DNA of 62,944 bases, counting the filler, from Sphacelaria rigidula (Eukaryota), in assembly GCA_964200075.2 (NCBI GenBank). It is 10 parts of 10 records of this genome, joined end to end, with 100 filler letters (N's around TTAATTAATTAA, not from the genome) between each part and the next. Parts side by side here need not be neighbours in the genome. Positions count along the whole stretch, not along the records: positions 37,829 to 44,032 come from CAXNAA020021524.1; 9 more parts are not named here. One strand, written 5' to 3'. Below, piece by piece: positions 793 to 51,459 of the stretch (its first letter is position 1; each line of letters begins with the position of its first letter). A model generated the notes under the pieces. It had not been told where the DNA came from, ran no database searches, and saw nothing but the letters and a program-made list of their open reading frames with translations. A program made the position numbers and the translations under genes.

Positions 793-3700
793 CTAGAGAA
801 TCCTGCCGTAGCTGGTATCTTCAATGTCCTCTACGTATATCGTGTCCACCTTCACTTCCTTCCCGTCCGAGTCGCGCTTGCACGTAATTCCTAGCTCTGT
901 ACCGCCAAATGAGAGTCGCATAGACATTCCACGACGAGCGAAAGGGGACGTCATGTCCACTGGTACATCAACCGTTACTAGAGTGTTCAACGTCGTGCTG
1001 GCGCTCCCGTCCTTCACGTACTGAACATCTGCAGCGCACTGTTTGGTTACAAGGATGTCGAAAGTTACATTCTCTTGGGCATCCGTCAGGGGTGAAAATG
1101 CATGTTCTTTGTCGGTTCCCACCGGAAGGTCTTGGCTCCTTTCGACGTACTTTTTAAACGTCTTGAGATACAGCTTACCACCGGTGAACGATATCTGACT
1201 CTTGCGTTGTCTGTGCTCTGGGTCGGCCGGGTCGTACGCAGACATAACTGCGGTTCCGTATGTCAACCGAGCTTTGCGAGAAATAATGGATCTCTTGTTT
1301 GCTCCGAATAGTGCCGCTCCCAGAACCTGACGTGCGGTTTCGGGGGGTTACGTGGGGGGCGGGTATATGACGAGGCAAGTGTAAATGGCCCTTTGACTTG
1401 GAACGTACGAGGGTGATCAGAGTCGTCAGCAGGTAATCGACAGATCACTCGATTCGTCACTCTTGGGTCTCAGGGCATCATCCAACGGTGAAACGAATGT
1501 GGAGAGAGAAAAAGGGGTGTGTGAGAGAGAGGGAGGGAGAGAGAGAGAGAGAGCGAGAGAGCGAGAGAGAGAGAGAGAGAAGAGGGAAGGGGAGAGAGAG
1601 AGAGGAGGGAGGGAGGGAGGGCGGGGGGAGCGTACTCATTTGTTGCTTGCCTTAGTCGTGTGACCATTGACCACGCATTCCTTTCGAGACGGAGCAGGGA
1701 GGGAAGGAGGGATCGAGAGCAATCTCACTTATCCTGCTCACGAAGCGATTTCCCCATGACGTGCTACTTGTCCCACAAACATCAATCTCGTGAAAGCGAC
1801 GACAAAATGCGCAAGAAGAGATACGATACTAGATGAGAAAATATCGACATGTGTTGATACTTTTCACGGAGTTGCACAACGATGCACGCCACCACTTACT
1901 TTATTTAAGGTGTGCATTCATGACATGATAGTAGCACTCGAAGTAGCAAAAGTAAGGAGTCGAGCTGGGGCATGATACGGTATCGGGATCATTACACCAG
2001 GACGATCGCAGACATGAATATGGGAGGCGCAATGATACATGAGAAAACGGAGAGTGACAACGAACGCGAGAAAATACGCGGCAGCTGTTATGTGGTGGTT
2101 TTCGTGTTATACCTAGTATTTTTGTACACATGGCTGTTCCTCTAGAAGTACAAGAATAATAGAACCCTGCGGTTCTTATCGCTATTGCTGTTGACCTTGG
2201 TCCTTGAACTTGGCTCCCTTCCTATTTGGATTCGCGTGTTGAGTGGACCAATGGGCCGTGCCTCGAGTAGCCCGAATGGTCGCAGACGGCATCGGAACTT
2301 AGCTAGCAGTTGTTATTTTTTTTTTCTTTTGTTTGGTAATTTATTTTGTTTGTATAGGGTCTGTGTGGGTATTTATGGGTCCGAATCTATTTTATTATGT
2401 TTTATATATTTTTGGGGGTAGTCAACCTTCGGCCACGGAAGACGTCGGCATACGATTACTAGTACAGAGTAATGCGCAAATATCGGGACGGTCTTTAATG
2501 TGAAAGCAGTAACAACAACAACAAGTTGTATGAGATGAAGATGAAGAGCCCGGAAAGGTTCACATTGAACTGGGGAGAAGGGGAATGAGCGATCGTAGAT
2601 CAGTGTACACCTCTTGGCGTAGAGATCTGAAAAGGGTATTGATGAGATACATATATAGAACGCACTAAGGAAGACACCGGTAAAATAGGAAAAATGGACG
2701 TGATCCTCAGAGAATCGCAGGTGGACATTACGATCAAGATATGAACTTTGATTAATGTGATTGTCCCGAAATTAAAATATGAGGAAGTATCGGGAGACAC
2801 AACGAAGATGGTGAAGCAGCTGGAAACTGCAGATAATAGCAGCCAAAAACACTTTGGAACTCTTAAGAACGACGTGTGACATAACATGAATAGCGGAAAT
2901 GGTACCCACTTCAAGCAATTAGAGATACGAGAACATTGAAAGGGCAATATAACGTGAGGGACATGCTAAATAAGAAATTTCCAGCCATAAATGATGAGCA
3001 GTATGTAAAACAGTTACAGAAGGGCAGGCTAGAGTACGGTGAAATAGCGCAGTCGAGAAAGTATGGAAGGACCTAAGGCGAAACCAAGACGAGGTCATGT
3101 CCACAGGTGAATGTGGGGTGTAGATAATGTGGCGATATGATATACATATGGGGAAACAGGCGCCGAGACAAAAGGTAGATGAGAAAGAGCACCTCACGAT
3201 ATACGTGGAGTTGAGAAAACATATGAGAATGGCAACATATCCAAAGCTCATCGTACGTTCGAGTGGGGACCATGGACCTGTCAGAACAGAGAAGTACGGG
3301 TGACCGCTGATACACGTTATCCACATTACTAAGCATCCCCGGGTGATGGGGAAGTGGAATAATGTTGCATTTCCGGATACAACCGTTTCAAATACATACT
3401 CAACTTTAGCGGAAGAAGCAGCCACGGATCAGCATTCCGTAACAAAGATCATAGCAGTAACCGACGAGATGGAACATTCATCGAAGGATACTGCATGGCT
3501 CCTCTACCGTATAGTTCGTGTACAGGAGTGAGTATATTGTCAGAAATAGTCGAGGTTGATATTTTGTCCAAGGTATCAAGAGTTTGGATGAACGGTTTCA
3601 TTGCATTCAAGAGTTTTGTCGAGAGATTGGCATAGCCCTACGCTATTACTCTTCAAACTTACCCACCTCAAGTACGCCCAGCACCTTGTCGTTAGTTTCC

Positions 3701-4746
3701 TGAAGAATGGTAAAGACAGATTGTGTTTGGTTTCGAGTTCGGCCAAGTGAAGCGCCAGGTGAAAAACATATTAATTCCTTTACTGCGCGAAGCAAGTGTT
3801 CAACCAACAGTGTGCAACCTCCACGAGCTGTCTTGTTAGAGCTGGATTCACGAGTTGATTGTCCTTGTCAAGTTTGACAGGTGAAGGCTATGCTGCTAGA
3901 CGTGTGTGAGCAGCCAAGCCACAGCCACCCTTCCAATAAACAGCATGCGTAACTCGTGAAACAAACTGCAAAACGGATGTTCAAGGATATCGGCGGGCTC
4001 ACAACAGTTACACGAAACGACGACGCGTGCGGACATCCGCCGATTCACCCTGCACGCACGTCTTCCGACCAATCGATAGCGTCTCAGAACGTAGGGACGT
4101 GCTCAAGTATGGATAACATGTACGAGCAGTCATCCGGGAAGAGGTAAAGTAGTAGTCGGGTCAAGGAGAAACTAGGTGCATATTGCCCATGTGGCAACGT
4201 GATTGAGGGTAGAACACGTATAGCGGCAGAATGTCAGCCCTACAAGGATGGGCGGGACGTGTGAGATAGAAGGGGGAACGTGGGAACTAAACGATGATGG
4301 TATAACCTCGTTTGGTATATTCGATCGTAGCGATAGGTTCATCGCTATACTAGGAGATATAGATGGTGGACACAGACGGCCAAAAGAGTAGGAGATAGTA
4401 TATACAAAATGGTTTGTGTGTGATGTACGAAATAAACGTAATGACCCCCTCAACTCCACCCCTGCAAACAAACTCACACATTTGTTGTACTTACGATCGC
4501 AAGACCAGGCTTGGGTGGAGCGACAACCCTTACAGCTCTGTGGCTGTCTTTCAGCCCGCTGGTGACCGCGTTCTGCAGGAGGAGACTGGAAGAAAATCCT
4601 CCAACCATGTATACCACTGATATCCCTGAGCGTTTGTCAAGTACTTCCCGACTTGCGCGTAAGATCTCCTTGAAAGCATCCTGGAAGAAGCTTGACACCA
4701 ATACAGGCTCCATCTTGAGCGTACGTCCCGTCACCTTGACTCCAGT
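793..4746 (-). CDS. HSPA12-like atypical Hsp70 family protein, last two exons (4746-4495 and 1326-793); 5' partial
   Basis: Exon 4746-4495 (CAG acceptor, GTAAGT donor) encodes ...VYMVGGFSSSLLLQ...VVAPPKPGLAI. It splices in phase 0 to 1326-793 (CAG acceptor), which encodes VLGAALFGANKRSIISRKARLTYG...MRLSFGGTEL...stop. The GGF-x-x-S, P-x-LAIV-x-GA-x-LFG, TYG and FGGTE motifs are typical of HSPA12-type proteins. Confidence 0.8.
1502..1621. repeat. GA-rich microsatellite
   Basis: (GA)n/(GGGA)n tract directly adjoining a LINE tail. Confidence 0.9.
1622..1696 (-). mobile_element. Short 3'-end copy of poly(C)-tailed LINE family 1
   Basis: Near-identical to 9548-9619, 19355-19424, 42421-42500 and 51101-51178. 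Flanked by AGGGAGGGA(G/A)GGAGGG at 1606-1621 and 1696-1711. Confidence 0.8.
2490..3300 (+). mobile_element. Degenerate non-LTR retrotransposon ORF2 (RT C-terminal/thumb region) in the HSPA12-like intron
   Basis: Broken frames read IVDQCTPLGVEI, GKMDVIL, NVIVPKLKY, VEKVWKDL and RVGTMDLSE, with many stops and frameshifts. Confidence 0.6.
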
Positions 4747-6205: not shown

Positions 6206-6305
6206 NNNNNNNNNNNNNNNNNNNNNNNNNNNNNNNNNNNNNNNNNNNNTTAATTAATTAANNNNNNNNNNNNNNNNNNNNNNNNNNNNNNNNNNNNNNN
6301 NNNNN
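6206..6305. other. Artificial contig spacer (also 12511-12610, 18816-18915, 25121-25220, 31425-31524, 37729-37828, 44033-44132, 50337-50436, 56641-56740)
   Basis: Identical N44-TTAATTAATTAA-N44 linker with stops in all six frames; the flanked segments are all 6204-6205 bp. Confidence 0.98.
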
Positions 6306-9547: not shown

Positions 9548-9619
9548 GGGGGGCGTACTCATTTGTTGCTTGCCTTAGTCGTTTGACCATTGACCACGCA
9601 TCCCTTTCGAGACGGAGCA
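9548..9619 (-). mobile_element. Short 3'-end copy of poly(C)-tailed LINE family 1
   Basis: G-run+CGTACTCATTTGTTGC...GAGACGGAGCA. Confidence 0.8.
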
Positions 9620-10246
9620 GAAGCAGACGAGACAGGGGGGGGGGAGCTATGCATCGAAACAGTCGTGAAGGTTGTTGGTAACGTGGGGTAATATAGCAGC
9701 TTATTACAACGGCAGGGAGCAGGAATTTTGAGGTCCACTAACCCTAGTAACAGTAAGATACCTCAGATGAAAGTTCCAGGGTCAGCGGTGATTACTATTC
9801 TTTTCCGCACAAACGATAAGTTAATAAAGGTATGGGTCCGGGTGGTCCATGGATTATCATATGGATTTATTCCGACAGCGAGTTTCTGCAGGAAAAACAA
9901 GAGCACGTTATCTTTCGAAGGACAATCGAGATTTTGGCCTTCGCCGGAGGCGCCGTGAGTCCGGTTCGTGTCTAACAGTACCTCAAACCTCGGAGCTGTT
10001 GACACCGACCACCTCACTAGCCAAGGAGATTCGGCAACTTTGAACCTGATCCGTGCTGTCAAGCCAAGCGCGCTTGGTGACGACTTGACAGCAAGGTTGT
10101 CTGGCCAGAGCGAACTGGCAGCATCGAATGAAGTATGGGAAAGCCTTGGAGTGGCATGCGAGGACGATGCTACGCTTCAGTGGCTGCTGCATCCAACGGA
10201 AGACAGCGGTCAATAAGATCAAGGACTTCGCCGGACTGGATGGGAT

Positions 10247-12510: not shown

Positions 12511-12610
12511 NNNNNNNNNNNNNNNNNNNNNNNNNNNNNNNNNNNNNNNNNNNNTTAATTAATTAANNNNNNNNNNNNNNNNNNNNNNNNNNNNNNNNNN
12601 NNNNNNNNNN

Positions 12611-12698
12611 AAGGCAAGCAACAAATGAGTACGCCCCCCCCCGCCCGATTGTAGGAACAATTGTCTTATGACTACGGCGTGCGAGATCATGAGTACAC
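12611..12698 (+). mobile_element. Adjacent 3' termini of LINE family 1 (12611-12642) and family 2 (~12670-12698)
   Basis: ...CAAATGAGTACG+C-run, then GACTACGGCGTGCGAGATCATGAGTACACC. Confidence 0.65.
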
Positions 12699-13342
12699 CT
12701 TCGTCGTAGGATCACCAATTTTTCTGTTCTAAATCCAGTTTTTGGAGCTCTGTTCATGTTACTCGAAACATGTATATGCATTCGCGTCGCTGTCGAGCTC
12801 CGCACGGCAGTCACAAGCAGTCGTGGTACACCCCCGCCACCTGCCGGCAGGATATGTTGCGAACGAGAAGGTGTTCGTGCATCACCTCGCAGCCAGATGA
12901 TTTTTCTCCAGGAATGATGCCTGTGCAGTAGCGCGTGCTGTAATGATGTGATCCACAGCAAGCACCGTCGACAGCACATGACAACACCGTGTTAGCTACA
13001 GTGCCCATCGGTACGTATCAGTCGCACTTTCATGTGTGCTGGCCACACAGACGAGTGGCCTGGGTGTGTAGCCAAGCTCGCTTCTCATCGATGGGCATGT
13101 ATACCCGCTACCGGATCCACCGCTTGCTTGCATTTGCAGAGTACGCCCACGGGCAGAGACACGCAGTGCAACTACAGGGCTGTACAGTACTGCTTTGCGG
13201 CCCGTGCATGTGAACATACTGAGTGTCAGGTCGAAGCTATGGCGTGCTGGTAGTTTGCCTTGATGTTGCCTGTATAGTACCTATCGACTAACCCCCAACA
13301 GGCTTTTTGGTCGTTTGTAGACTACGATTGACAAAGCGTCAA

Positions 13343-17956: not shown

Positions 17957-18372
17957 CAGTAGTCGAGTGGAGGAAGTAGATGCACAGAATTGTGCCTGTG
18001 GCAGAGCAGTAGAGAGTGGAACTCATATAGTGGCTGACTGTGAACTTTGCAATGAGAAACGGGACGTGCTAGAGGGGGAAATGCGGGATGTGAACGAAGG
18101 TGGCATGAAATCGTTTGATGCATTCAGGAGACAGTAGGGAGAAAATGACGGCTATACTAGGACAATAGATGATGGCGACAGACGGCGAAACCGGAGAGGG
18201 TAAGATATGTAAAAGGTTTCTGTGTACTGTACGGAAGAAACGTAATGAGCGCCGAAATGTTGGAGGTGTCACTATTCGGAGTAGGGACGGTGCTGCGTCT
18301 CGAAAGGGATGCGTAGTCAATGGTTGAACGACTAAGGCAAGCAGCAAATGAGTACGCCCCCCCCCTCCCCCC
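17957..18372 (+). mobile_element. Longer 5'-truncated copy of LINE family 1 (ORF2 C-terminus with Cys/His knuckle) in a D-LDH intron
   Basis: Reads EVDAQNCACGRAVESGTHIVADCELCNEKRDVLEGEM...RKKRNERRNVGGVTIRSRDGAASRKGCVVNG and ends GAGTACG+C-run. Confidence 0.8.
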
Positions 18373-18971
18373 TCCGCTCCCCGGAAAGTCTGGTCCCGCA
18401 AAACCCGGCGTGCTCCGTCCCGGCTTTGTAGGGACGGACCACCTATGGGGTTGGCGTCGGTTGTCAATCACGCTGTAAACACGCCACTCACTGCGTAAGC
18501 TAGGCGGCCAGGTAACCGGTTTTTTGCGCACTTTCAAAACTATGCTGTCCTTCTTTCAAACCTAGCGGGCGGACGGGGAAGCCGCAATCCCTCGGGTAAG
18601 GAGAGTCATTTCAACCATGTCGATGTACTTTGAAAAAACGAACTCTTTCGTTTTCAAAGGTGTTCCGAATTCGGGTACATAATAACATGTGATATCAATA
18701 CCGAGTGTGACCTCTATAGGCAGACGTCTGCAGACGGGAGGTAGAGTAGATCAACGAAAGCTCCAGATCGCAGCCGACGCCCCCCTCTGCACGATGCTAG
18801 CAACAGTTAGGTCACNNNNNNNNNNNNNNNNNNNNNNNNNNNNNNNNNNNNNNNNNNNNTTAATTAATTAANNNNNNNNNNNNNNNNNNNNNNNNNNNNN
18901 NNNNNNNNNNNNNNNGTGGCACGGGGGGGGCGAGGGGGGGGCGGGGGGTTGGGGGTGTTGTGGACTGGGGC

Positions 18972-19003
<32 letters not shown>

Positions 19004-19331
19004 TTTGATTGCACGAAAAATGAGACTCAAAAGTGTGTCAGACAACCTGCTACACTCGCGGTGCGCTGGTATTTGGTTCAAAACGGTGTCAATCGTTATG
19101 AATGAGCGGTATCTATCTATAACAAGCTCGTTCGAGCAACCGTTGCTGCTTTCAACGACGACTTGACTTGGAATTTCGTGCAAGAATTGGCCCAAAATAC
19201 CCCCCCCCCCATATCGTAGGATAACTCTAAATGTCTCGTCCAGGAAGCGGGGCGGAGCCGTTGTCGTATCCTGCGGCATGCTCATTGCAGTACTCGGATG
19301 TGTTAATAAAACCAATGTAGATAGAGTTCGG

Positions 19332-19651
19332 ACACTTTCTACGGTAGCCCCCCCCGTCTCGAAAGGGATGCGTGGTCAATGGTCAAACGACCAAGGCAAG
19401 CAACAAATGAGTACCCCCCCCCCCAAAATGTGGCTGGTTTGGGGAGGCAAAATTTGCACGTAAATCGAAATGAAAAAGTTCGAGCACAACGAGCACCTGG
19501 TAATTCCCGCGCTTTGATTCGTTTTTGCCGATGTCGCCCTTACGAGGCGCTTCATGCAGCCTGAAACCAAACATCAGGCGCTGTATGACCATTTTTTCGT
19601 GACAGTTTCGGGCTGTTTTTTCTGGGGGGGGGGGGGGCTATTGTTAAAAGT
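19332..19651. mobile_element. MITE family B with a LINE family 1 3' end (19355-19424) inserted in its poly-C tract
   Basis: TIR ACACTTTCTACGGTAG(C)n ... (G)nCTATTGTTAAAAGT; a copy without the insert lies at 37868-38133. Confidence 0.7.
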
Positions 19652-19659
19652 TTCTTCGT

Positions 19660-21607
19660 TGGATTCATGACTGCCGGAACGTTTGCGCTGGTGACTGAAA
19701 TTCCTGAGGGGTGCAACCTTGTGGACGCTAAGTGGTTGCATAAGTTGAAGGGAGATTCACATGATATGGTTGACCGGGCGAAATCCCATGTGGTAGTCAT
19801 GGGATAGAGTCAGGTAGAAGGAGTAGGCTACTTTGAGACGTTTGCCCCAACGCATCTGCTATACTTTAAGCAGGTTGGTGGCGGCATGACATGAAACCTA
19901 GGCTGGGATTTGAAGCTTTTTGAAGTGGAAGAGGTTTTCATTCCGGCGGAGTTGGACACCGATATCTACATGCGCCTTCCCCCCGGTTTTGCATCAGTTT
20001 CTCATAAGGTGGTACGACTCAATAAGGCCTTGTATGGATTGAAGCAGAGTGGTCGTGCGTGCTGTCACCTGTTGTCATCCACCCTGATGGAATGTTGTTT
20101 CGAGCAACGCTTGGTAGATCCCGGTGTGTTCCGACTGAGGGTTGCTGGTGACGTTGTGGCGATGGTGGTCTTTCATTTGGACGATAGCATAGTACCAGCT
20201 ACTGAGGAAGTGACTAAAGTGATAGTCGGTGCGCTCCATCAGAGATTTTCCGCTAAACATCTCGGTGAGGTAGAGTGATACGCGGGGAGTGGGGACAAAA
20301 GAGACGCAGAGAACGCAACTTTGGAGAGTTTACAAACCCAGTTCATTCGGAATGTGTTAAACCGTTCTGACGTCTCGACGACCAGCCCCAGTCCCGCTAC
20401 CCCTTCCTTAGACCTCAAGCACGCAAGCAAGGAGGAGACCGTGGTGGATGTGCCTTTCCGTGAGATCGTGGGGAGCCTGGTGTGGATAGCAAACCAGACG
20501 AGGCCCGATATCGCGAATGCGATTCGGGCAATCGGGCGGTTTTCACATGACCCCAAGCTGATTTAATGGAAGTCATCATAAAAGATACTCCGATACTTGT
20601 ACACTACGTTGAACTCAGGTCTACTTTTCAAGAAGAGCAGCGACTTGGGATGTTCTCAGTTGTAGAGTGACTTGAATACTTACATTGACGCAGACTACGC
20701 CCATAAAGCGGAGGACCGACGTTACGTTTCTAGTTTAAGTAATTGCTGCGGAGGTACGCTAGTATCTGGCTCTCTGGAACGCAGAAGGGCGTCACCCTAT
20801 CTACCACTGAGGTAGAGTATGCAGCAATGCCAGACGATGTTAGGGGGGGCGTTCATGTGAGGAGGGCTCTGACGTTCCTAATGCCCGATTTGGGGGCGAA
20901 AAGCGTCGGCGTTTTCGAGGACAACAGGGGGGCGAAAGACTTCGCTAAAAGTCCCTTGAGCTCATCCAACAGCAAGTACATTGGCGTACGGTACCAGTTT
21001 CTCAGGGAACTGGCTGTTAGGGGCGATATCTCTGTAAAGTATCTTCAATCAGAAGATCAGCATGCAGATGTTCTCACGAAAGCTATTGGTGAACAGAGTT
21101 TCAGAAAACACCACCATTGACCTCTTGGGCAGGGTGTACATTTTTTTGCGATTATTTTGTTTTGTAGCGGACCCTACAATTTGTGATAAGGGATGATAGT
21201 AGGAACTTCGATCTAATGTAGTTTATTCGATAATAACCAGGCCATGCTTAGGCTTGCTAGTCGATACAGCTAGGGAGGGTGTTCAGTATAGCTGGTCTAG
21301 GAATATAAGCCAGCATGTATGCGGGGGACAATCGCGGGGGATTCAAGTGTTGTAAAAAATGTTCTTCACAAGGTTCCCCATGATTGAGGAACGGAAAATT
21401 GTCCCGAGTTCTCATGCTCTGGGACTGTTTCAAGGGTCGGACGAATTACTGATTCTTCTGAATATTACTTGATTTTAGTGCAGTTGATGCGAACCGCACG
21501 AATCAATCCTTGGGCTTTGTTATCAGCGTTGCGACCCAGGGACGCGCACCCCAGGCACGTGGAATGGCGCAAAAATTGAGTAGAGACTTTTTCGACCAGC
21601 GGTCAAC
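19660..21607 (+). mobile_element. Degenerate Ty1/copia retrotransposon: RT, RNase H, PPT and probable 3' LTR from 21280
   Basis: AKW, YFETFAPT, LNKALYGLKQSGR, FHLDD, PFREIVGSLVWIANQTRPDIA, DADYA, LSTTEVEY, FEDNRGA and QHADVLTKA motifs with stops and frameshifts. AGGGAGGG precedes TGTT at 21280. The LTR end is approximate. Confidence 0.92.
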
Positions 21608-25399: not shown

Positions 25400-28300
25400 C
25401 CACTATATACTCAATCGTGTCGGCGTGATTTCGCCACACGTCAGAAGCTTGAATAGTCCTGTCCAGTTGAGGGATAGCTTAGTCTTCAAGACTGTCTCGT
25501 TGGCAGCTCTGTCAGCGCCTTGACGAATGGTTGACAAACTGTTGTAAACCTAGACCCAATCGCCAACCTTCCAAGTAGGTCGTTTGTGCATCAGATTGTA
25601 GAGAGCATTATTTGATCTTTCAAGGCGCGAGGCGTTTATGGCGTTTTGTTCACGCACGAAAGTGAAAGCTTTGCGCTGGCGTGCACGCGCCAGGTCATGG
25701 TAGGATATCTGATCCTGATCCAAGCCTTGGTGGCCATCGAAGGTGTGTGTCTCAAACACGGTGATAGGCAAACGCGGGTAGCGGCCGAGATGTAACTGGT
25801 TTGAAGAAAGACCGGTAGCAGCGTCGGCGGAGTTGTTATAAGACAATATGACATGTGAGAGATGGAGATCCCAATCGTTTTGCCGATCGTTGACTACCAT
25901 AGACAGCATCTGGGCCATGGTGTGGTTAACTCTTTCAGTACCACCGCTACCACTAGGGTGGTGAGCGCTCGTGGATATCTTTCGAATGCCCAGGAGCGTA
26001 TACAGTTCGTCCGAGAGATCGGAGCAAAATTGCTGACCATTGTCGGAGGGAAGCCGTCTCGGGCAACCATAGTGCTTGATATAGTCATGAACTAGGATAT
26101 TAGCTGTGCCCGCTGCTGTGAAGTCTCCAGCGGTGACTGCGTACATGGCTGCGTGACGGCTAAAGCGGTCGGTAAAGCGTAAGATGTAGGCGTTGCCACG
26201 GTCAGTGGGCGGTAAAGGACCAAAATAGTCGAAAGACCCGAGGTGACCAGGAGCGTTGGGAAGTGCCATCGAAATAACTGGCCAACGTATAGTCTGTCGT
26301 GAGGTTTTGCGTGCTTGACACTTGAAGCAACGCTGAATCCAGAAGCGGGTGGACACTTCCATACCTATCCACCAGTCGAAACGTTCGAGTAACGCTAATG
26401 TGCGCGTGATACGAAGGTGGCAAGACAGGTCAATGTGGCAGCCTTTCATTCCCCACGGTCGCATCAAAAATGGGCCATATATCCGAGTGGGTTCATTGTC
26501 GAGTAGGCGTGCATGGCGCCCAGTGGGCGCGGGTGAAGTTACACCCTGCTGGGGCGTAGGACGGCGGACAAGTAATTCGATTCCGCCATCAGTTGTGAAG
26601 ATAGTAGCTTTACGTGCGAGTTCGTACACCTCAGCGGCGTATGTGGTGGCAGTGTGCCAATCGGGGCCGGGATAGGAGCAGGGTACCCAGCACGGAAGTA
26701 CCGCATGGTTGCGCGGCATAATGGTTATGCTTGTTGTTCACGAGCCCAATTACGATGGGAGTAACTGGCGAGAAATTTGCGCAGTTGGCCTTCCGCCGGA
26801 GAGCCGGTCAGACATGGTGGCTCATAAAGCGGTGGAACAGGCGACGGGGGGGAATACCAACGTCGATGTGAACATTGGGAGCATCAGAAGGGGTGGGCAC
26901 TGACGGGACCGCGGCGAGCGCCGATGTCGCAGTAGTGCGCACCGGAGATTGCCCTCGGCACTTGTTGTGAGAACTGCGCGTGGCGGGGGTTGTCAAGGCT
27001 CGTGGTGTGGTGTTGCGGGGAGCCGGCGCTACGCTGCTCGTAGGGGCAGTAGGTGTTGTCGGTGACGGCGGAGCGCGGGGAGGGTTAGCGCGGGCGGCAG
27101 ACCGAGAGCGCGTGTTGTCGGAAATGAGATGGACAACTGGAGGGGGCGAAACTGCTATTTTGGCGCGAGGACCGATAGTACGGAAATCGGCGAAATCGGC
27201 GTCGGTGGGTTGTAGCCCATTCAAGACTGCATCATATGGTAGAGGGCGGGGGCCGCCCATGTGCATACCCGTCTCTAGGCAATGAAGGTCAAGGGTGTAA
27301 ATGGGCGTTGAGAAACGTCGGATAAGATACACGTCGGTTTCATCAGATTCAGTTGGTTGACAAGCGGGGCTGAAATCCACAGCCGTTGGAGGAAGGGGCA
27401 CGCGGGAGAGAAGGTCAGCATTCCCGTTGGTTTTGCCAGCGCGGTGTTTGACAGTAGATTGATAAGCTGTCAGGAACTCCAACCAGCGTTGCACACGCGG
27501 GTTATGTTCGCCAACTTTGGCTAGTTGTTCAAGTGCTCCGTGATCCGTGTAGATTTGGAAAGGCACATGGAACAAATATTCTCGAATGCCCTTTATGGCC
27601 CAAGTGATGACTCCGCCTTCCAGCTCCAGTGGACTCCAGCTGGCCTCGTTTGGAAGGGTGGCGCGACTGATGTAGAGGATGGGTCGAATAGAGCCATCGA
27701 GTTGAGGCTGATTCAGGACCGTGCCGAGCCCTTCTGTGCTCGCGTCTGTATGTAGTTGAAAGAGGCGAGAGCCGCCTTGTACGGCATCCCAGTCCGGGAA
27801 ACAAAGGACCGGTTTTTCGGTGAGCGTTTTCAGCAAGTCGCGCACGATAGCTTCCATACCTTTGGCGAAGACAAATGCCGCGCCTTTTTTTTGCAAGTCC
27901 GTAATGGGGCGAATCCGTTTGGACAGGTTAGGCAAAAAATTGCGATAGTAGGACAGTCCACCTAATAATGAGCGGAGCTGGGTAATGTTTGTGGGCATTG
28001 GCAAATCAGTCATTGCCCTGACTTTGTTGGTTTCGGGGTGTAGACCCGCCGGTGAAATTGAGTGTCCCAGAAAATCCAGTTCAGTCGCGCCAAGGCGAGC
28101 TTTGGATGGAGACAGTTTCAAATCATGTTTCCGCCGTCGAGAAAGAAACTCTCGTAAGGTGTGCATATGCGAAAGGGGGGAAACATCGAATGCGATAGCG
28201 TTGTCCAAGTACATGATGACGTGTTCGAGATTCTCGGTAACGCGTTGCATTAAGCGTTGAAAACAACCTGGTGCAGTGGCGGCACCTTATGGCATACGGA

Positions 28301-30059: not shown

Positions 30060-31325
30060 TCCTTCGACGAAAATGCAGTGCGGTAGGGTTTTATCATCTC
30101 ATGACATTGGGGAATGGTACGGTAGTGACGCAATATTCTCCGTTGAGGAGGTCAATCCTTGACTTTGGGGTGGCACTGGAACTTATCCGGTGAACCGGCT
30201 CCTACCTCCAGTTTATGACCATCGATATACTCCACGACACAGGGTCCCACCAAAACCTTGTGCCCTAAACCATCAAGGTCTGGGACGGGAAAAGTCGTTC
30301 CTAGGAACAGAAAATCTAGCGCTTCAAGGTTGGGGGCAGGTGATGACGTTGGGACGTTGTATTTTTTTATGCGACCTAGATGGACATTGATTTCTGCCGG
30401 ATCACCTGCTTTACTGACTCGGTAGGTGACCGGTGATAATTGCGCTCGAACAGAATACAGACCATGACATGGGCTGTACAGCTTGGGGTTGGGCCCATCA
30501 GTTTCATGCTACGGACGATGGATCAACACTTGATCACCTGCTTTGCAACTGGGGAACGACAGTTTCTCAGTCTCAACCGCTTGCTTATCTCCTCGCTCTT
30601 CAAAATTGCGAGCTAACTCTCAGGCGGATTGCAAAGCATGGACTGTTTGACGGGAGTAATCAAGACGGGATTGTGGTGCGATTATGGCTGGGACTCCGAG
30701 AATAAGATCGACAGGAAGTACGGCTGCGCGGCCAAACATCAAATAGTGAGGTGTTTCCTCAAGCGTTGACGAATACGATGTATTATGCGCTAATTGGACA
30801 AAAGGTAGAAACTCGGCCCAGTTATCACATGCAAGATTGTTGCATATGGCCAACATGTTGTGGACAGTGATGTGGACACGCTCTGAGACAGAATTTCCTT
30901 GCGGGTGGTACGCAGCGGTACGTGTTTTCTTCTGCCCAAAGACTGACTGGAATTCCCTCACTAACGGGTTTGCAAACTCAGTTCCTTGGTTAGAGTGCAG
31001 TGTCTCAGGTGGTCCGGATACTGAAAAGACACGTTCCCGACAAGTTCCCGGACGACACTTGTATAGCTTATTTGTTCTTGATGGCTATCAAGACAACAAA
31101 TCTAGTGAGGTGATCAATCACAGACAGGACGAAGCGGTTACCTTCGGACATAGTTTTATACTCCACTAGATCTACTGTTACGCATAGGAATGAGCGTTCG
31201 ATAGGACGGTGCCCGACAGGGAAAGTGGGCGGGTGATAAGAGGTTTTCCGATGCTGACAGGATACATAGCTATTGACATGATGTTGCACATCGGTATGCA
31301 TTGTGGGCCACCAGTGAGTCATGCT
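30060..31325 (-). mobile_element. Second degenerate Ty3/gypsy element: integrase, GPY/F region and probable chromodomain
   Basis: WWPTM, VDLVEY, VIDHLTRF, SNQGTEF, AYHPQGNSVSER and TPHYLMFGR. Near 30245-30080 it reads VVEYIDGHK...FQCHPKVKD*...IPQCHEMIKPY. Confidence 0.88.
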
Positions 31326-31330
31326 ACGAT

Positions 31331-31424
31331 GGGGGGGGGGGGGGGGGGTACCCATGATCCTGCATGCCATTGTTCTCAGACCATTAACCTCGCATCCCTA
31401 AAAAGCCGGGACGGGCCACGCCGG
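31331..31424 (-). mobile_element. 3' end of poly(C)-tailed LINE family 2
   Basis: Minus strand ...GGATCATGGGTAC followed by a long C-run; similar to 32558-32660. Confidence 0.7.
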
Positions 31425-31562: not shown

Positions 31563-31845
31563 TGGGGGGGGGGGGGGGTGGGGGGCTTACTTATTTGTTG
31601 CTTGCCTTAGTCGTTTGACCATTGACCATGCATTCCTTCAGAGACGGAGCCCCGTTCCTACTCCCAATAGACACATCTCCAGTATTTGGGCACTGATTAC
31701 ATTTCTTCCATACATTACACAAACACATTTTACATATCTTATCCCCGTCCTGTTTCGCCGTCTTTGGTCGCCATTTATCTTGTAGCATAGCCATCGCTTT
31801 CTCCATACTATCTAATGCATCAAACGATTCCATGCCACCCTCGTT
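31563..31845 (-). mobile_element. 5'-truncated LINE family 1 copy
   Basis: ORF 31591-31833 MESFDALDS...VWKKCNQCPNTGDVSIGSRNGAPSLKECMVNGQTTKASNK*, followed by C-runs. Confidence 0.8.
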
Positions 31846-31861
31846 TATTTAGTTAACACAG

Positions 31862-34800
31862 GCGGGGGGGGGGAGGGGGGATCTTTTTAGGGCGCTGGCT
31901 ATGAATCGAGCGGTGACTTCGTTGGATCTCGCGGCGAATGAGCTCGACGAGTACGCCGGGCACGAGTTGGCCTATGCTTTACTCAAAAGCAAGACGTGAG
32001 TTCTTAGCGAGATGATGTGCTGTGCTGAGCGAAAAATGGGGGACCGAAAATCCTCGGGTGATTCGGGCCCTAGGCTAAATCGGTTTGGGTACTGGGTGTA
32101 TTGTGCACTACTATGAGGTACGTCGCGTTATAGTAGACGAGTGTTCAAACACTTTACCGAAGCGGGTGCGGAAACGTCAACACGATGTGTTGGCGCCCGA
32201 CAGGCACGGAGATACTGGTGTGTTGTACAGTCTATGCGGTCTTCCGCAACCGGTAGCGCGTCTGGTACCACCTGTGGTCGGTCGTGTGTTGTGTCTTCCT
32301 CACTCTAGGAGGTTTCGTAGATTTGGCGGGTAAATGACTATACGAAACCCACAGTATACGGGTTGACCGTTGTGATGGACGCTGGAGCGACTGTGCGATG
32401 TTACCCACATCTTGCTCGCCCCAGTTTTCTCTAGCTCCCAAGGATGGTTGGCACATCCTTGAAATAACCCTAACTCTAACCCTAGCCCTAACCCTAACCC
32501 TGACCCTGACCCCAACTCAAGGCATACCGAGAACCCTCGGGCGAGGGGGGGCTGCGCGGGGGGGGTGTACTCATGATCTTGAATGCCGTAGTCATATAGC
32601 CATCGACCTCGCCTCCCTACCAAGCCGGGACGGACCACGACGGATTTTCGCCGGACCAGGGGAGCGAGGGCGTGTGGAAAGGGTGCCCCGGTTAAAGTGT
32701 GCGTTGGGAGACCTCAAATCGGCGCCCCGGGGCGCCGATTTGAACAAAAACGTGCTCTGTGCACGCTAGGAGCACTTGGGACTGTCAGTCCTACTAAAGA
32801 TCCGAATATTGATTTCACACTTGAATACTACTTTGCGGCTGGACCGGGGTAATCTCCACTGTATCTTCTCGGCCGATCCCTCTAGAAAATAAAGTGCTGA
32901 TTCTTGCTTTTGTGAATCTTTGTGAATCGGCATCATTTTGACTCGAAAATGACTGAAAATGCGATTCACAAAAACAAAAAATCAGCACTCCCTGAGGCTC
33001 TAGTCCCCAAAAAGGTTAATACTTATACGAACAGGTTTTGGTGCTTCGATGCATTTATGTATCAACATTCTTATACTCGATTGCTGCAATCCGGATCGCA
33101 TCACTTGCGCTTGTTTTTCGGGCGGCAGAATTTTGGCTATTGATCTCACCGGCAACGTCATACCGGAGCAGTGGCTTCGCGAGCACCATCGAGTGAGGAA
33201 ACGGCGACACTGAAAAATGCAACGCATAAGAGTATCCTTGTTTATGTAGTGTAGGGGGGTTTGCGCTCAGTGTAGTATCTTGCGTACTGGCGCACGAGGA
33301 AAATTATCCTGCAATGTCGCCTAAAATTACGTCGTTCGGGGACGCTAACTGGGCAAAATATCATGTCATGGTATTTAGAGGCAACGATTTGGGTGAGGCA
33401 TCGTATATAACTGTTCCTCATGAGTAGTTTCATCGGACGGGTACTACATGTACAGAGGCGGGTTTTGGATATTGCTTGTGGTTAATTCAGTTTGCTTATA
33501 GGGTACCAGTTCCGTGTGAGAGTTGGATAGCAAAGCTTCTGAGTTATGCATGCTCGACAGGTGATGGTACGGTTTCACGGAGGTGCTCGGTGGACTATAG
33601 GCCAATCTACCGGCCAGGGGTTACACCAGACTTTCAAAGATTTTCCTGTTTTGGGAATATTATCGTTCATGTTTTAGTTCCATTTTCGGGTTCTAGGTGT
33701 TGTAGATGACAACATGTGTGATGCGTGTATTTCTAAGATGGGTTGAGGCACACGCTCTCACTCATCACCACTCTGGTTTTGGACCTAAGCATCGACCTTT
33801 GGACAAATTTTCTTGCTCCCATGGGTTAGCCGAGTCCGTACTGGTGAGACTTGGGTGTGAATGAAGTCTTGCTCGTTTGCATTGTATAATGTAAATGACT
33901 TATACCATTGCCTGAGATAAAAAATTTAGGCTCTGTATGCGTGCATTGTGAGGCTCGTTTTGGAGAACGAACAACACGACGCAAGCCGCTGCTTTTGTGT
34001 GTGAAGAGGACTTGAATATCGAGGGACTCGTGAGCCTCATCTTGTGGGCAAAACCTCTTCTTTCCATCACAATCACCGTTTTCTCTTTTCACCACCTTCA
34101 TTCGGAAAAATCCATCGACTTATGTGTTTCTAAAGGTAGTGCAAAGAGCTGCGGGGAAATTAATTGATTGATTGATCACCACACATTAAAGTAAGCCCTC
34201 TAGGGGGTACAACCGACTTCACAAGATAGACGCTAAACAGGCGTGATAGCTGTGATCGCTGGTTGTACACGCTGCAAAAAGGCAAACATTAGTCTACAAG
34301 AGGTTTGGGCAACCTACCTGTATGTGCATCGAACCCCCCTTCTCCTCCCCCTCTGCTTTTCCCTCCGGCGGCGTGCTTGCCTCTTCTGCCCAGATCTGCA
34401 GCGAGGTGTACGGAGTTCTACCGTCTCTCGCAGAGAGCCTCAGGCTAAACCGCGACTGGAAATCCTGCGCCTCGTTCATGTCGCCTCGCTCGGTCAGGCG
34501 AGAAAAGACAAAGGTCAGGGAACAACGGGCACTCGAGCGGCGAGCACGGCTGCGGCGGCGCCGAGGCCAAGGCCTTGTGATTCGCAAAACAGCAACCGCG
34601 AGCGGAGGGGGGCGTGACGGGATACGGCGCGGTCATCACGCGGAGAAATCGGGCGAGGCACGTGGAGAAATGAAAGAAAATGCTGACGGTGGTGACCCGG
34701 GAAATGGCGGTGAAAAAGTGTCGGTGGGTCTAGGGGAGAATATTGTGGGAGCGGTGGCCGGAGAGCCGGTGAAGAGTAATCGACACGGTGGAGTTGAAGA

Positions 34801-37867: not shown

Positions 37868-38133
37868 ACCCTTTCCACGACACCCCCCCCCCCCCCCCCC
37901 CCCCAAGAAAAAAAATGCCTGGTTTGGGGAGGCAAAATCTTCACCTCAATCGAATTGGATAAAGCCGAGCACCACGGGCAGCTGGGAATTTCCACGATTG
38001 GGCTCCTTCTCGCTAATGTCGCCCATATGAGGCGCTTCATGCAGCGTGAACCCAAACATCAGGCGCTGTATGGCCATTTTTCTTGGGACACTTTCGGGCT
38101 GGTTTTGAGGGGGGGGACTATCGTAAAAAGTGT
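37868..38133. mobile_element. MITE family B, complete copy
   Basis: CTTTCCACGACA(C)n ... (G)nACTATCGTAAAAAGTGT; no coding capacity. Confidence 0.7.
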
Positions 38134-42420: not shown

Positions 42421-42500
42421 GGGGGGGGGGGGGCGTACTCATTTGTTGCTTGCCTTAGTCATTTGACCATTGACCACGCATCCCTTTCGAGACGGAGCAC
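42421..42500 (-). mobile_element. Short 3'-end copy of LINE family 1
   Basis: G13 run+CGTACTC...GGAGCAC; ACGGGGGG on both sides (42419-42426 and 42499-42506). Confidence 0.82.
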
Positions 42501-42988
42501 GGGGGGTGATGGACAACGTTTGGGTAGATATTCGGCGTCACCCGGCGTAGCAGCCATGCTAAAGTGCTCGAGTGGAATATGTGCGGCACGTGCACCGAGG
42601 AAGATGACCGATATAAATGCTGATCGGGGCTTCCCGAGACAGCTGTCCAACATCTCTAAACCAGTCAACCGCCGGTTACTGGTTAATTGGCTGGCTTGGC
42701 AGTCGAGGTGACGACTCGTTGAAACGACCGATTAACATCAGTCATCATCCATTATGCGATTTTCGAGAATAGCTGAAGCAGTTTTGTTGTCGTTTTTCCC
42801 CTGCAAAGAGCCCGCCAGCCGTGATGAGTCACCGCGTTTATCTCGAGTTCCACCTGACAAACGGGCGCGTATCAGTACCAATGTTCTCGATGCATGTTAC
42901 CGTATCGTATCGTATCGAGGATGTAAATGGCATCGATATGTATCGCTAGTTTGTCATTGCTGACTATAAAGTAATATATATGGATATA

Positions 42989-43522: not shown

Positions 43523-44132
43523 TAGTTCATTGTCCACCGATGAAAAAAACGTGAATACGATCGGGGACTTCAATCTCGCCAGTTACCGATACTGCTTTGA
43601 TGAGTATCGTCGAGTTTGACCGATACTCCACCCTCAACTTTGACATACGTACAGTAGCCAATGATTCGAACTCTTGGTGCTCCCGAGTATGCTAGTATGC
43701 TAGTATGCTAGTATGGCGTTTAGGAAAGATATTACAAGTGTGGCGTAAACATTTAGAATTGCGATGTTCGGTACTACACCGCGGAAGCTCGGTTCACACA
43801 CACATTTATACACACACACATTTTTTTCTCACCCCGTTGTATTATATTATTATTGCATATGAAAAATCGTTACGCCACCCAAACTGTTGTCATTTGATGG
43901 TTGACTTCGCATTCCTACAAAGCTGGGTCGAAGCATGCCGGTTTTTCGCCGGACCAGACTCACGATCACATATCGGGGCGGTGGGGGGAGGAGGGGGGGG
44001 GGGTTGTTCTTTGGTGCCTTGCTTTCTCAGTTNNNNNNNNNNNNNNNNNNNNNNNNNNNNNNNNNNNNNNNNNNNNTTAATTAATTAANNNNNNNNNNNN
44101 NNNNNNNNNNNNNNNNNNNNNNNNNNNNNNNN

Positions 44133-50436: not shown

Positions 50437-50579
50437 CCTAATAAAGACACCTCCAACATTCTGGCGCTCATTACGTTCCTTCCGTAGCTCATGGGGGGGG
50501 CGGGGGGCGGGGGGCGTACTTGTGATGTTGCTCGCCTTAGTCCTTTGACCACTGACCACGCATTCGCTTCGAGAAGGAG
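50437..50579 (-). mobile_element. Degenerate LINE family 1 fragments
   Basis: 50437-50483 matches the WKKRNERPNVGGV region; 50492-50579 is a G-run plus the terminal ~70 nt. Confidence 0.65.
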
Positions 50580-51100
50580 GGGAAGCTCACACCATCAAAT
50601 TCCGTTACAGTGGGAAGCACGTCCCAAATCTTGTGCCTCCCGTGGATCCTTACTGCAAGCATGATATCGGCTATATCTCAATTCGGCTCATGGTAAAATC
50701 CTAAATCTTACCAAGCAACGATTCTATCCGTCATTAAATGTCTTTCGTTCCCCCTACATCCAGGTACATGTCGCATGCACATGCACTTTGTCTCATGAGT
50801 GTGAGTATATTCGATTACACGGAACGGCAAGTACTAACTTGCCTTGCATTTACAACGGGACAGAAAAGTCTCAACATAATATCCAGAGGGTGGACGAACG
50901 CACGGGAAGGGTCCATCCTTCGGGGACCCTTACTATGTTCTTCTGCATTTTTCCACGTTCTTGTTTTGACAACATGAATCGTTTCAATCATGATGAAGAG
51001 GGAATACGAAGCCATCTGTGGACCCATACACACATCCATTATTAATTTCTCGTACTACAACGAGTAATGCCGCGCTAGACCGCCCCCCCTCCCCCAAATC

Positions 51101-51178
51101 GCTCCGTCTCGAAAGGTATGCGTGGTCAAAGGTCGAACGACCAAGGCAAGCAACAAATGAGTGCACCCTCCCTCCCCC
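51101..51178 (+). mobile_element. Short 3'-end copy of LINE family 1
   Basis: GCTCCGTCTCGAAAGG...AATGAGTGCA, flanked by CCCTCCCCC on both sides. Confidence 0.78.
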
Positions 51179-51459
51179 GAACCAGCCCCAGAACTACCGT
51201 TGAGCGCATGATCACCAACTTCAGATCGTGCGAAGTGCCTAACATGGGCAGTGGTGGCGTAACGGTGTGCTCGGCTTCTTTATCTTGATTTAGATATATA
51301 CTTTTGCCTCTTCAAATCAAATGCTTTTTTCTTTTCTCTTTTTTTGGGGGTGAGCTATCGCAGGGTCCCCAAATATCTACCCCTTTGACGGCAAAGTGGT
51401 ACTATCTGCAGACGTCTCCGTACATCGAAACTGTGCACATGTTGGACATATCAACTCCC

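Follow-up and report, generated by a model that had tools for sequence, protein, structure and literature searches.

A nucleotide-constrained module at the 3' end of a poly-C-tailed brown-algal LINE and its abundant tail-only form

Introduction

What is the short, C-tailed sequence found at positions 42,421 to 42,500 of a 62,944-nucleotide stretch of Sphacelaria rigidula DNA (assembly GCA_964200075.2; the whole stretch is called the window below), and is it kept as RNA, as DNA or as the end of a protein? A preliminary description of the locus, made from the sequence by itself, read it as a conserved and co-varying three-way-junction RNA with helices P1, P2 and P3, placed at the 3' end of two divergent LINE families (families 1 and 2) and serving as a cis element for reverse transcriptase (RT) recognition or RNA processing. 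A precedent for such an element exists, since excerpts of PMC4176376 and PMC1636434 describe stringent LINEs in which the ORF2 protein binds a cognate 3' stem-loop, with a tail common to LINE and SINE. Here the copies of this module, the element that carries it, the constraint acting on it and its predicted fold are described, and the explanations for it are weighed.

Results

Copies of the module in the window

The window consists of ten pieces of ~6.2 kb joined by spacers of the form N44-TTAATTAATTAA-N44 (6206-6305, 12511-12610, then every ~6305 nt) and is thus a composite, so that features seeming to cross a spacer, such as the family 1 tail at 12611, are cut there. On the minus strand, the copy at 42434-42500 reads GUGCUC-CGUCUC-GAAA-GGGAUG-CG-UGGUC-(11 nt)-GACUA-(15 nt)-GAGUAC-G followed by 13 C. 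The strings quoted earlier for this and the other copies were all present as quoted, among them UAGUC at 18313, GACCA at 19374 and 51123, GUGGCC/GGGUAC in the copy in the 31-kb region, and a G-G mismatch in P1 of both complete family 2 copies. A 24-nt module motif occurred five times at up to 3 mismatches in the window and not at all in 100 shuffles. A covariance model built from 12 family 1 copies recovered all 12 at E<=2e-17, eight of these being window copies, and the same model detected the two complete family 2 copies (31347-31419 and 32566-32638) at E~1e-6.

When the 1.6 kb upstream of the 42434-42500 copy was compared by BLAST, only the last 75-86 nt were common to other copies. Two longer copies, at 18093-18375 and 31845-31567, match over ~285 nt at 80% identity. 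Each copy is followed by a C-run of 6-18 nt, and this variable run always lies on the 3' side. The copies are spread over seven of the ten pieces, or eight if family 2 is included, and the repeat density is about one per 6 kb (Table 1).

Table 1. Positions of tail modules and associated features in the window
Feature	Position	Strand	Remarks
Family 1 tail-only copy	42434-42500	-	66-nt module plus following G; covariance model, 99.8 bits
P1 strands of that copy	42495-42500 (5' strand), 42435-42440 (GAGUAC)	-	
Poly-C tail of that copy	42421-42433	-	13 C
C-run directly 5' of that module	42501-42506	-	6 C; BLAST similarity to other copies ends at or before 42506
Family 1 short copy	1631-1697	-	Both flanks C-rich; covariance model
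Family 1 short copy	9554-9620	-	C10 run plus 14 nt upstream; covariance model
Family 1 tail	12611-12633	+	5' part lost at spacer between pieces
Family 1 long LINE copy	18093-18356	+	5'-truncated, decayed; ORF2 3' homology maybe back to ~17960
Family 1 short copy	19349-19415	+	Starts at module position 8 right after 8 C; covariance model
Family 1 long copy	31586-31845	-	Decayed; stop UGA changed to UAA, several pairs broken
Family 1 short copy	50515-50582	-	Diverged; covariance model
5' part of another long copy	50437-50486		After poly-C of the 50515-50582 copy
Family 1 short copy	51099-51165	+	P1 pair 2 is CG instead of UA
Family 2 tail copy	31347-31419	-	Followed by 18 C; adjoins Gypsy integrase fragment; covariance model
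Family 2 tail copy	32566-32659	-	Includes ~20 nt extra upstream common to other family 2 copies
Family 2 partial copy	18390-18434	+	Lacks its 3' part; follows the poly-C of the 18093-18356 copy
Family 2 partial copy	43903-43957	-	Decayed, C-run before it; model (43885-43957) E=5.3, not significant
Family 2 3' fragment	12667-12699	+	Just after family 1 tail and poly-C at 12611-12646

An intact LINE that ends in the module

No non-LTR RT or endonuclease was detected by Pfam in the ten longest and 136 further open frames of the window, which matched only Gypsy and Copia; the LINE ORF itself is seen only in related contigs. Metagenome contigs scanned with a 20-nt tail motif gave seven stretches, of which three (contigs L001, L004 and L007) were true copies, the other four being rejected as unrelated sequence having the same 20-mer. 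L001 and L004 each have an RVT_1-bearing frame, longer than 671 aa, that reads straight through the module. A scan of prokaryote genome contigs located the same element as contamination in a bacterial metagenome-assembled genome (MAG), where contig L012 carries a single intact open frame of 1382 aa with an AP endonuclease, a reverse transcriptase and a CCHC motif near the end. The endonuclease domain (Exo_endo_phos) lies at 193-437 and RVT_1 at 763-1012, with Pfam scores of E=8e-11 for PF03372, E=1e-7 for PF14529 and E=7e-32 for PF00078.

The L012 frame ends in ...NGAPSRKGCVVNGQMTKASNK, its stop being the UGA inside AAAUGAGUAC, after which come G and C14, and the frames of L001 and L004 end in the same way. 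The module thus comprises the last 21 codons of the ORF, the stop and four more bases (GUAC), followed by G and the C-run, and the stop codon is made up of the U before GAGUAC and the first two bases of GAGUAC. The overlap of the fold region with the last ORF2 codons and the stop, as put forward in the preliminary description, is accordingly present in these contigs outside the window. In four independent contigs an intact ORF2 runs without a break into the unit. An AP-type endonuclease and an RT thus occur in one element, outside the window in L012, and among the short and long copies there is variable 5' truncation with a common 3' end and a simple 3' tail. Family 1 is, as had been proposed, the 3' end of a genuine LINE; the LINE is brown-algal and of the AP-endonuclease type.

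A HMMER search of 1.84 billion representatives with the ORF returned 2670 proteins at E<=0.001, indicating a large family. Named relatives of ORF2, like those of the Gypsy pol in the window, were all from Ectocarpus or Sphacelaria. A set of 49 matches reaching the C-terminal end of the query was examined, and among them are read-through fragments that continue beyond the tail peptide as ...RVRPPPP or CVPPPPP, the translation of GAGUACG and the C-run.

Two of the brown-algal LINE contigs, L012 (G001:C43) and L011 (G001:C51), lie in one bacterial MAG, and a 330-nt contig (L009) with 93% protein identity lies in a Hyphomonas oceanitis assembly; these look like host-DNA contamination. A further tail family was absent from the MAG carrying the LINE contig, whose second LINE contig (C51) lacks the 3' end. 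Residues ~1-190 of the L012 ORF (about 4100-4261, minus strand), which come before the endonuclease, had no Pfam match, and part of this region appears RRM-like (RNA-binding) by eye. Over the 1 kb that precedes the L012 ORF there was no sign of a separate ORF1. In viral contigs there were no matches to an exact 32-nt pattern and no relatives of the ORF2 protein; the terminal 15-nt pattern gave 37 stretches, which were regarded as chance because none scored better than E=0.14 against the model.

Constraint on the tail as nucleotide sequence

Synonymous change was scanned in windows of 22 codons between two intact subfamilies of 79% amino-acid identity, L001/L012 and L004. The last 22 codons contained no synonymous change in 15.3 sites, whereas pS was 0.28-0.90 in all 29 upstream windows and about 8 synonymous changes would be expected in the last window at the mean upstream rate. 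The tail is therefore constrained as nucleotide sequence rather than as protein. Two differences were present there, both non-synonymous: with G18>A the U11-G18 pair becomes U-A, so that pairing is kept, and U40>C is a loop position whichever model of the third arm is used. The conserved block starts ~30 nt upstream of P1, and identity of the core exceeded that of the upstream sequence in 8/8 sequence pairs. Contigs from four sequencing runs of the alga were also compared with a reference (L008:2101-2415); a single module position (position 40, T/C) varied at a frequency of at least 4%, compared with dozens of positions upstream.

Judged by these comparisons, conservation appears to go beyond what coding or neutrality explains, in keeping with the candidate cis element of the preliminary description. 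Recent exchange of 3' ends between subfamilies, rather than selection, could lie behind identical tails. Such exchange could mimic the pattern in one pair and fits less well with contigs from different samples and from the alga itself.

Predicted fold of the family 1 tail

In family 1, P1 and P2 were predicted by RNAfold with pair probabilities of ~0.8-1.0, apart from the closing pair of P2 (C7-G22, 0.41-0.44). In this model the isolated RNA most likely has P1 (GUGCUC/GAGUAC) as its closing helix and, within it, P2 as a hairpin capped by GAAA. The third helix did not hold up in the form first given, a stem with an 11-nt loop, as its pair probability was only 0.01-0.12 and it was disfavoured against another hairpin. 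A duplicated UGGUCAA word permits the tighter hairpin UGGUC-AAAY-GACUA, extended by GUC/GGC, which is the more likely third arm by prediction; the pair-preserving variants quoted for P3 are compatible with both versions. The 66-nt core gave z=-2.0, with 9 of 200 shuffles as good, and z=-0.9 when flanks were included. In the full-length RNA there is an alternative four-arm fold (z=-2.4) in which GUGCUCC finds its partner in a GGAGUA further upstream and the 3' end is paired with GGUGUCUC, and RNAalifold, applied to 14 sequences, preferred a different, rod-like consensus with GUCUCG paired with the 3' end. A three-way fold of the family 1 tail is plausible on the basis of these predictions.

Two more specific structures were tried and rejected. 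An interaction of the GAAA tetraloop with an 11-nt receptor (CUAAG...AUGG, in the third arm) fails in that the flanking pairs of the receptor motif do not form, and an HDV-like fold drawn by hand leaves no room for P2 and P3 between the candidate P1 strands.

Covariation

Compensatory change, central to the three-way junction as it had been described, did not exceed the shuffle and slid-partner controls. For family 1 (12 sequences, 10 distinct), 138-174 of 500 shuffles reached the observed covariation measures; after addition of the two family 2 copies the figure fell to 13-16 of 500. In this larger set three pairs show a double change, once per pair and each time in a single decayed copy; when the partners were shifted by +1, as many double changes appeared. 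Unpaired combinations made up 13% of 204 pair cells, and in the covariation tool's own trials values of this kind arise without structural constraint. Dead copies are unable to test the fold because they decay neutrally. The commonest variants of the 49 tail peptides within the 3' strand of P2, scored by eye, were Gly>Arg (6/49) and Cys>Arg (5/49); the single-base routes to both would keep the pairs, a hint in favour of the fold, and L004 has the Gly>Arg variant at the DNA level. These data fall short of establishing a conserved, co-varying three-way junction shared by two LINE families.

Family 2 tails

Family 2 is represented here by short tail copies; no ORF2 of its own was found, so that it is a putative LINE family. 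Compared with family 1 they have a P2 loop of nine nucleotides instead of four and one extra base further 3'. The proposal that they share the layout of family 1 stands for the sequence blocks, which are kept, and falls short for the junction, which is thermodynamically weak: it lies 7.4-7.5 kcal/mol above the minimum free energy, with a P1 probability of 0.02-0.22 and z values of -0.5 and +1.6. The frame open upstream in family 2 meets a UGA within the third arm, 24 nt short of the end. Should this frame be real, the two families would read their common blocks in different frames, which would favour conservation at the nucleotide level.

A discrete tail-only form

Most copies of the module are short. 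Of the eight window copies that could be assessed, two are longer and six have their 5' end within 8 nt of the base that opens P1; C-rich sequence lies just upstream of 6/6 short copies. Family 2 copies likewise come after C-runs or family 1 tails. In the four sequencing runs most of the depth belongs to a tail-only unit of ~66 nt with C-runs on both sides, often in tandem. Summed word depth over the module was 9-27 million in three runs and 3.6-4.8 million in the fourth, and dropped ~3-fold 20-30 nt upstream of the module, in sequence that is still conserved. At 200 nt upstream it was 10^3-10^4 times lower, a figure that is an upper bound, the ratio of tail to body being inflated because the bodies of the alga's copies are more than 20% diverged from the reference.

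Loose ends before reference position 2343 numbered 358-446 per run and had a poly-C consensus, and similar numbers per run, also poly-C, were found behind 2412-2414. Many joints lead back 66-77 from the C-run to module positions -3 to +6, mostly +2, and represent head-to-tail arrays of unit plus C-run. The preferred 5' boundaries coincide with, or adjoin, C residues of the module (-2, 4, 6/7), and the sharpness of the 5' boundary can be accounted for by microhomology joining to a C-run at the target together with a founder effect. The short copies share the conserved extreme 3' element with the LINE, and they showed no pol III-type head of the kind found in SINEs, as they start at the module directly after a C-run. 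We read the tail-only form, from its joints and boundaries, as a probable passenger of the LINE that inserts at C/G-runs.

Comparison with known elements

Across the whole window no Rfam family reached its gathering score, and at E<=10 the short copy, the long form and family 2 gave only chance-level matches to lncRNA, miRNA and sRNA families, in line with the earlier remark that the element was not recognized as one already described. Covariance models of ribozyme classes (hammerhead, HDV-like, twister, hatchet, pistol and others) gave no match, including at E<=10. ARAGORN predicted no tRNA gene in the window, and Rfam no tRNA or tRNA-like element. In the literature searched, no description of a poly-C-tailed LINE or of this repeat was found, nor anything specific on brown-algal LINEs or SINEs; the supplements to the Ectocarpus genome paper might contain this repeat.

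Self-cleaving ribozymes are a further type of structured RNA in retroelements, with HDV-like ribozymes at the 5' ends of LINEs and hammerheads in Penelope-like elements and retrozymes. The algal module resembles these in being a possible structured RNA that defines an end, with a sharp 5' boundary at the base of a helix; it differs in lying at the 3' end and in the Rfam result given above.

Stringent LINEs, namely eel UnaL2 and zebrafish ZfL2-1/2 as portrayed in the excerpts cited, offer the closer likeness: a short conserved element at the extreme 3' end is followed by a simple repeat, and it is common to the autonomous LINE and to short non-autonomous copies. The differences are several. The algal module lies inside the ORF rather than in a 3' UTR; its tail is a C homopolymer; its proposed fold would have several arms rather than one hairpin; its passenger is a bare tail without a pol III head; and its host is a brown alga. 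Binding of the algal module by ORF2 would be an analogy with the stringent elements.

SINEs with LINE-derived tails are abundant, short, non-autonomous elements that carry a LINE 3' end (excerpt of PMC5786205). The algal unit, probably non-autonomous too, shares these properties and differs in consisting of the tail only, with no tRNA-, 5S- or 7SL-like head or body by ARAGORN and Rfam. Within brown algae, Sower is the most abundant, unclassified Ectocarpus repeat, making up ~1.2% (~2.5 Mb) of the genome according to a review (PMC3145265). The tail-only unit is likewise an extremely abundant short brown-algal repeat and may be the same as Sower, an identity that is only a lead.

Discussion

The best explanation of these data, to which we give a probability of roughly two in three, is that the module is a 3' recognition module of the stringent type that lies within ORF2, that its poly-C tail serves for priming and that the tail-only form is a parasitic derivative. 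By analogy with stringent-type LINEs, the LINE's own protein would recognize the module on its RNA, and reverse transcription would begin within the C-run, with a G-run of the nicked target as its primer. Such priming would in turn account for the presence of copies in or beside C-runs and for the head-to-tail arrays. The version consisting of module and C-run, to which most copies belong, is probably non-autonomous and carried along by the LINE. Of the two functions suggested in the preliminary description, recognition by RT is, by this analogy, the better reading, and RNA processing becomes a minority one.

The alternatives differ in what is thought to be recognized. The module may act as primary sequence, or as target or junction DNA, with the three-way fold irrelevant and the apparent helices arising incidentally from three repeated GU(G)YCUC-like words and the words complementary to them. 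The near-invariance of the module fits a kept sequence as well as kept pairing, alternative pairings compete with the proposed one, covariation stays at the level of the controls, and family 2 retains sequence blocks with no stable junction. Against this, family 1 has high predicted probabilities for P1 and P2, the sole helix substitution between the two intact subfamilies keeps its pair, and the Gly>Arg and Cys>Arg variants, as scored by eye and read through the genetic code, would both do so; we consider this alternative unlikely. That the conserved entity is instead a functional C-terminal ORF2 peptide (...GAPSRKGCVVNGQMTKASNK) gains some credit from the persistence of the peptide in most of the 49 tail-bearing fragments and from a 44%-identical family that ends with a similar one. 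A selected peptide is hard to reconcile with frozen synonymous sites beside two changes that are both non-synonymous, with tail-only copies that keep the same sequence without an ORF, or with the family 2 open frame, which stops 24 nt earlier while the nucleotide blocks are still kept, and this reading is very improbable. The least probable of those considered makes the unit a minisatellite associated with C-runs, or else a DNA transposon's terminal inverted repeat captured by the LINE. Tandem joints do exist, as does one inverted pair with tails outward (50501-50579 and 51101-51179), yet the continuity of the unit with intact ORF2, the constant 3' position of the C-run and the dispersal of copies over most of the pieces are not what such an origin predicts.

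A different kind of alternative concerns the short form. The module could be an RNA-processing signal, either a new self-cleaving motif or a tRNA-like substrate of RNase P (closing helix, unpaired G, then CCC...), that cuts at the first base of P1 and releases an RNA of ~70 nt as the template of the abundant short copies. The sharp cluster of 5' ends at -3 to +6 of P1, seen in thousands of contigs as well as in six of the eight assessable window copies, would be expected from such cutting, and the arrays would fit an RT that jumps from the 5' end of the short RNA to the next C-tail. The absence of any ribozyme or tRNA-like match even at E<=10, of a tRNA by ARAGORN and of visible hammerhead core words speaks against it, and 5' ends at or next to C residues fit microhomology joining or a founder effect with no need of cleavage, so that we hold a processing signal to be improbable. 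An extended version, in which the module is a self-sufficient minimal retroposon whose RNA is cut from longer transcripts at the first P1 base and copied by the LINE's RT through end-to-end template jumping between C-tailed RNAs, is doubtful too; if true, it would account at once for the sharp 5' boundary, the C-runs on either flank, the arrays in tandem and the very high copy number. On present evidence the module is not a new class of RNA.

If the preferred reading, recognition of the tail by the LINE's own protein, is right, the element would be a concrete case of an RT-recognition signal written in the coding sequence of a LINE, with its synonymous sites frozen. The tail is unusual in being poly-C and not poly-A or a microsatellite. 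The module may also explain a very abundant short brown-algal repeat as a bare LINE tail that multiplies with no SINE head, and thus bears on the minimal size of LINE passengers, on priming at C/G-run targets and on repeat annotation in brown-algal assemblies.

Other repeats of the window

Both strands abound in C-runs of 7-29 nt, with 43 runs of at least 7 in 63 kb, and many have no recognizable element in front of them, for example at 18930-19000 (minus strand) and 37883-37904. The word CTACGAT(AG), or its complement ATCGTAG, often adjoins C-runs, including the downstream flank of LINE tails (window ~103-115, 19200-19225, 19335-19348, 31320-31330 and 38116-38132; L004 ~95-110), and may represent either a favoured target or the end of a different repeat. 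A Ty3/Gypsy pol with RT, RNase H and integrase is located at 25550-28286, Gypsy fragments at 30155-31397, among them the integrase fragment that adjoins the family 2 copy at 31347-31419, and a Copia RT fragment at 19895-20275. The sequence at 4151-4444 is 68% identical to 17958-18248 and represents a relative of the long family 1 copy without the terminal module; both have the same apparent 5' start, AGTAGTCG..., and the relative may be a 3'-deleted copy or belong to a subfamily of ~415 nt with a fixed 5' end. A short degenerate telomere-like array of TCAGGG/TTAGGG/CTAGGG, with ~8 units on the minus strand, is present at 32466-32512, away from the ends of its piece; a family 2 tail with its C-runs lies ~55 nt upstream of the array.
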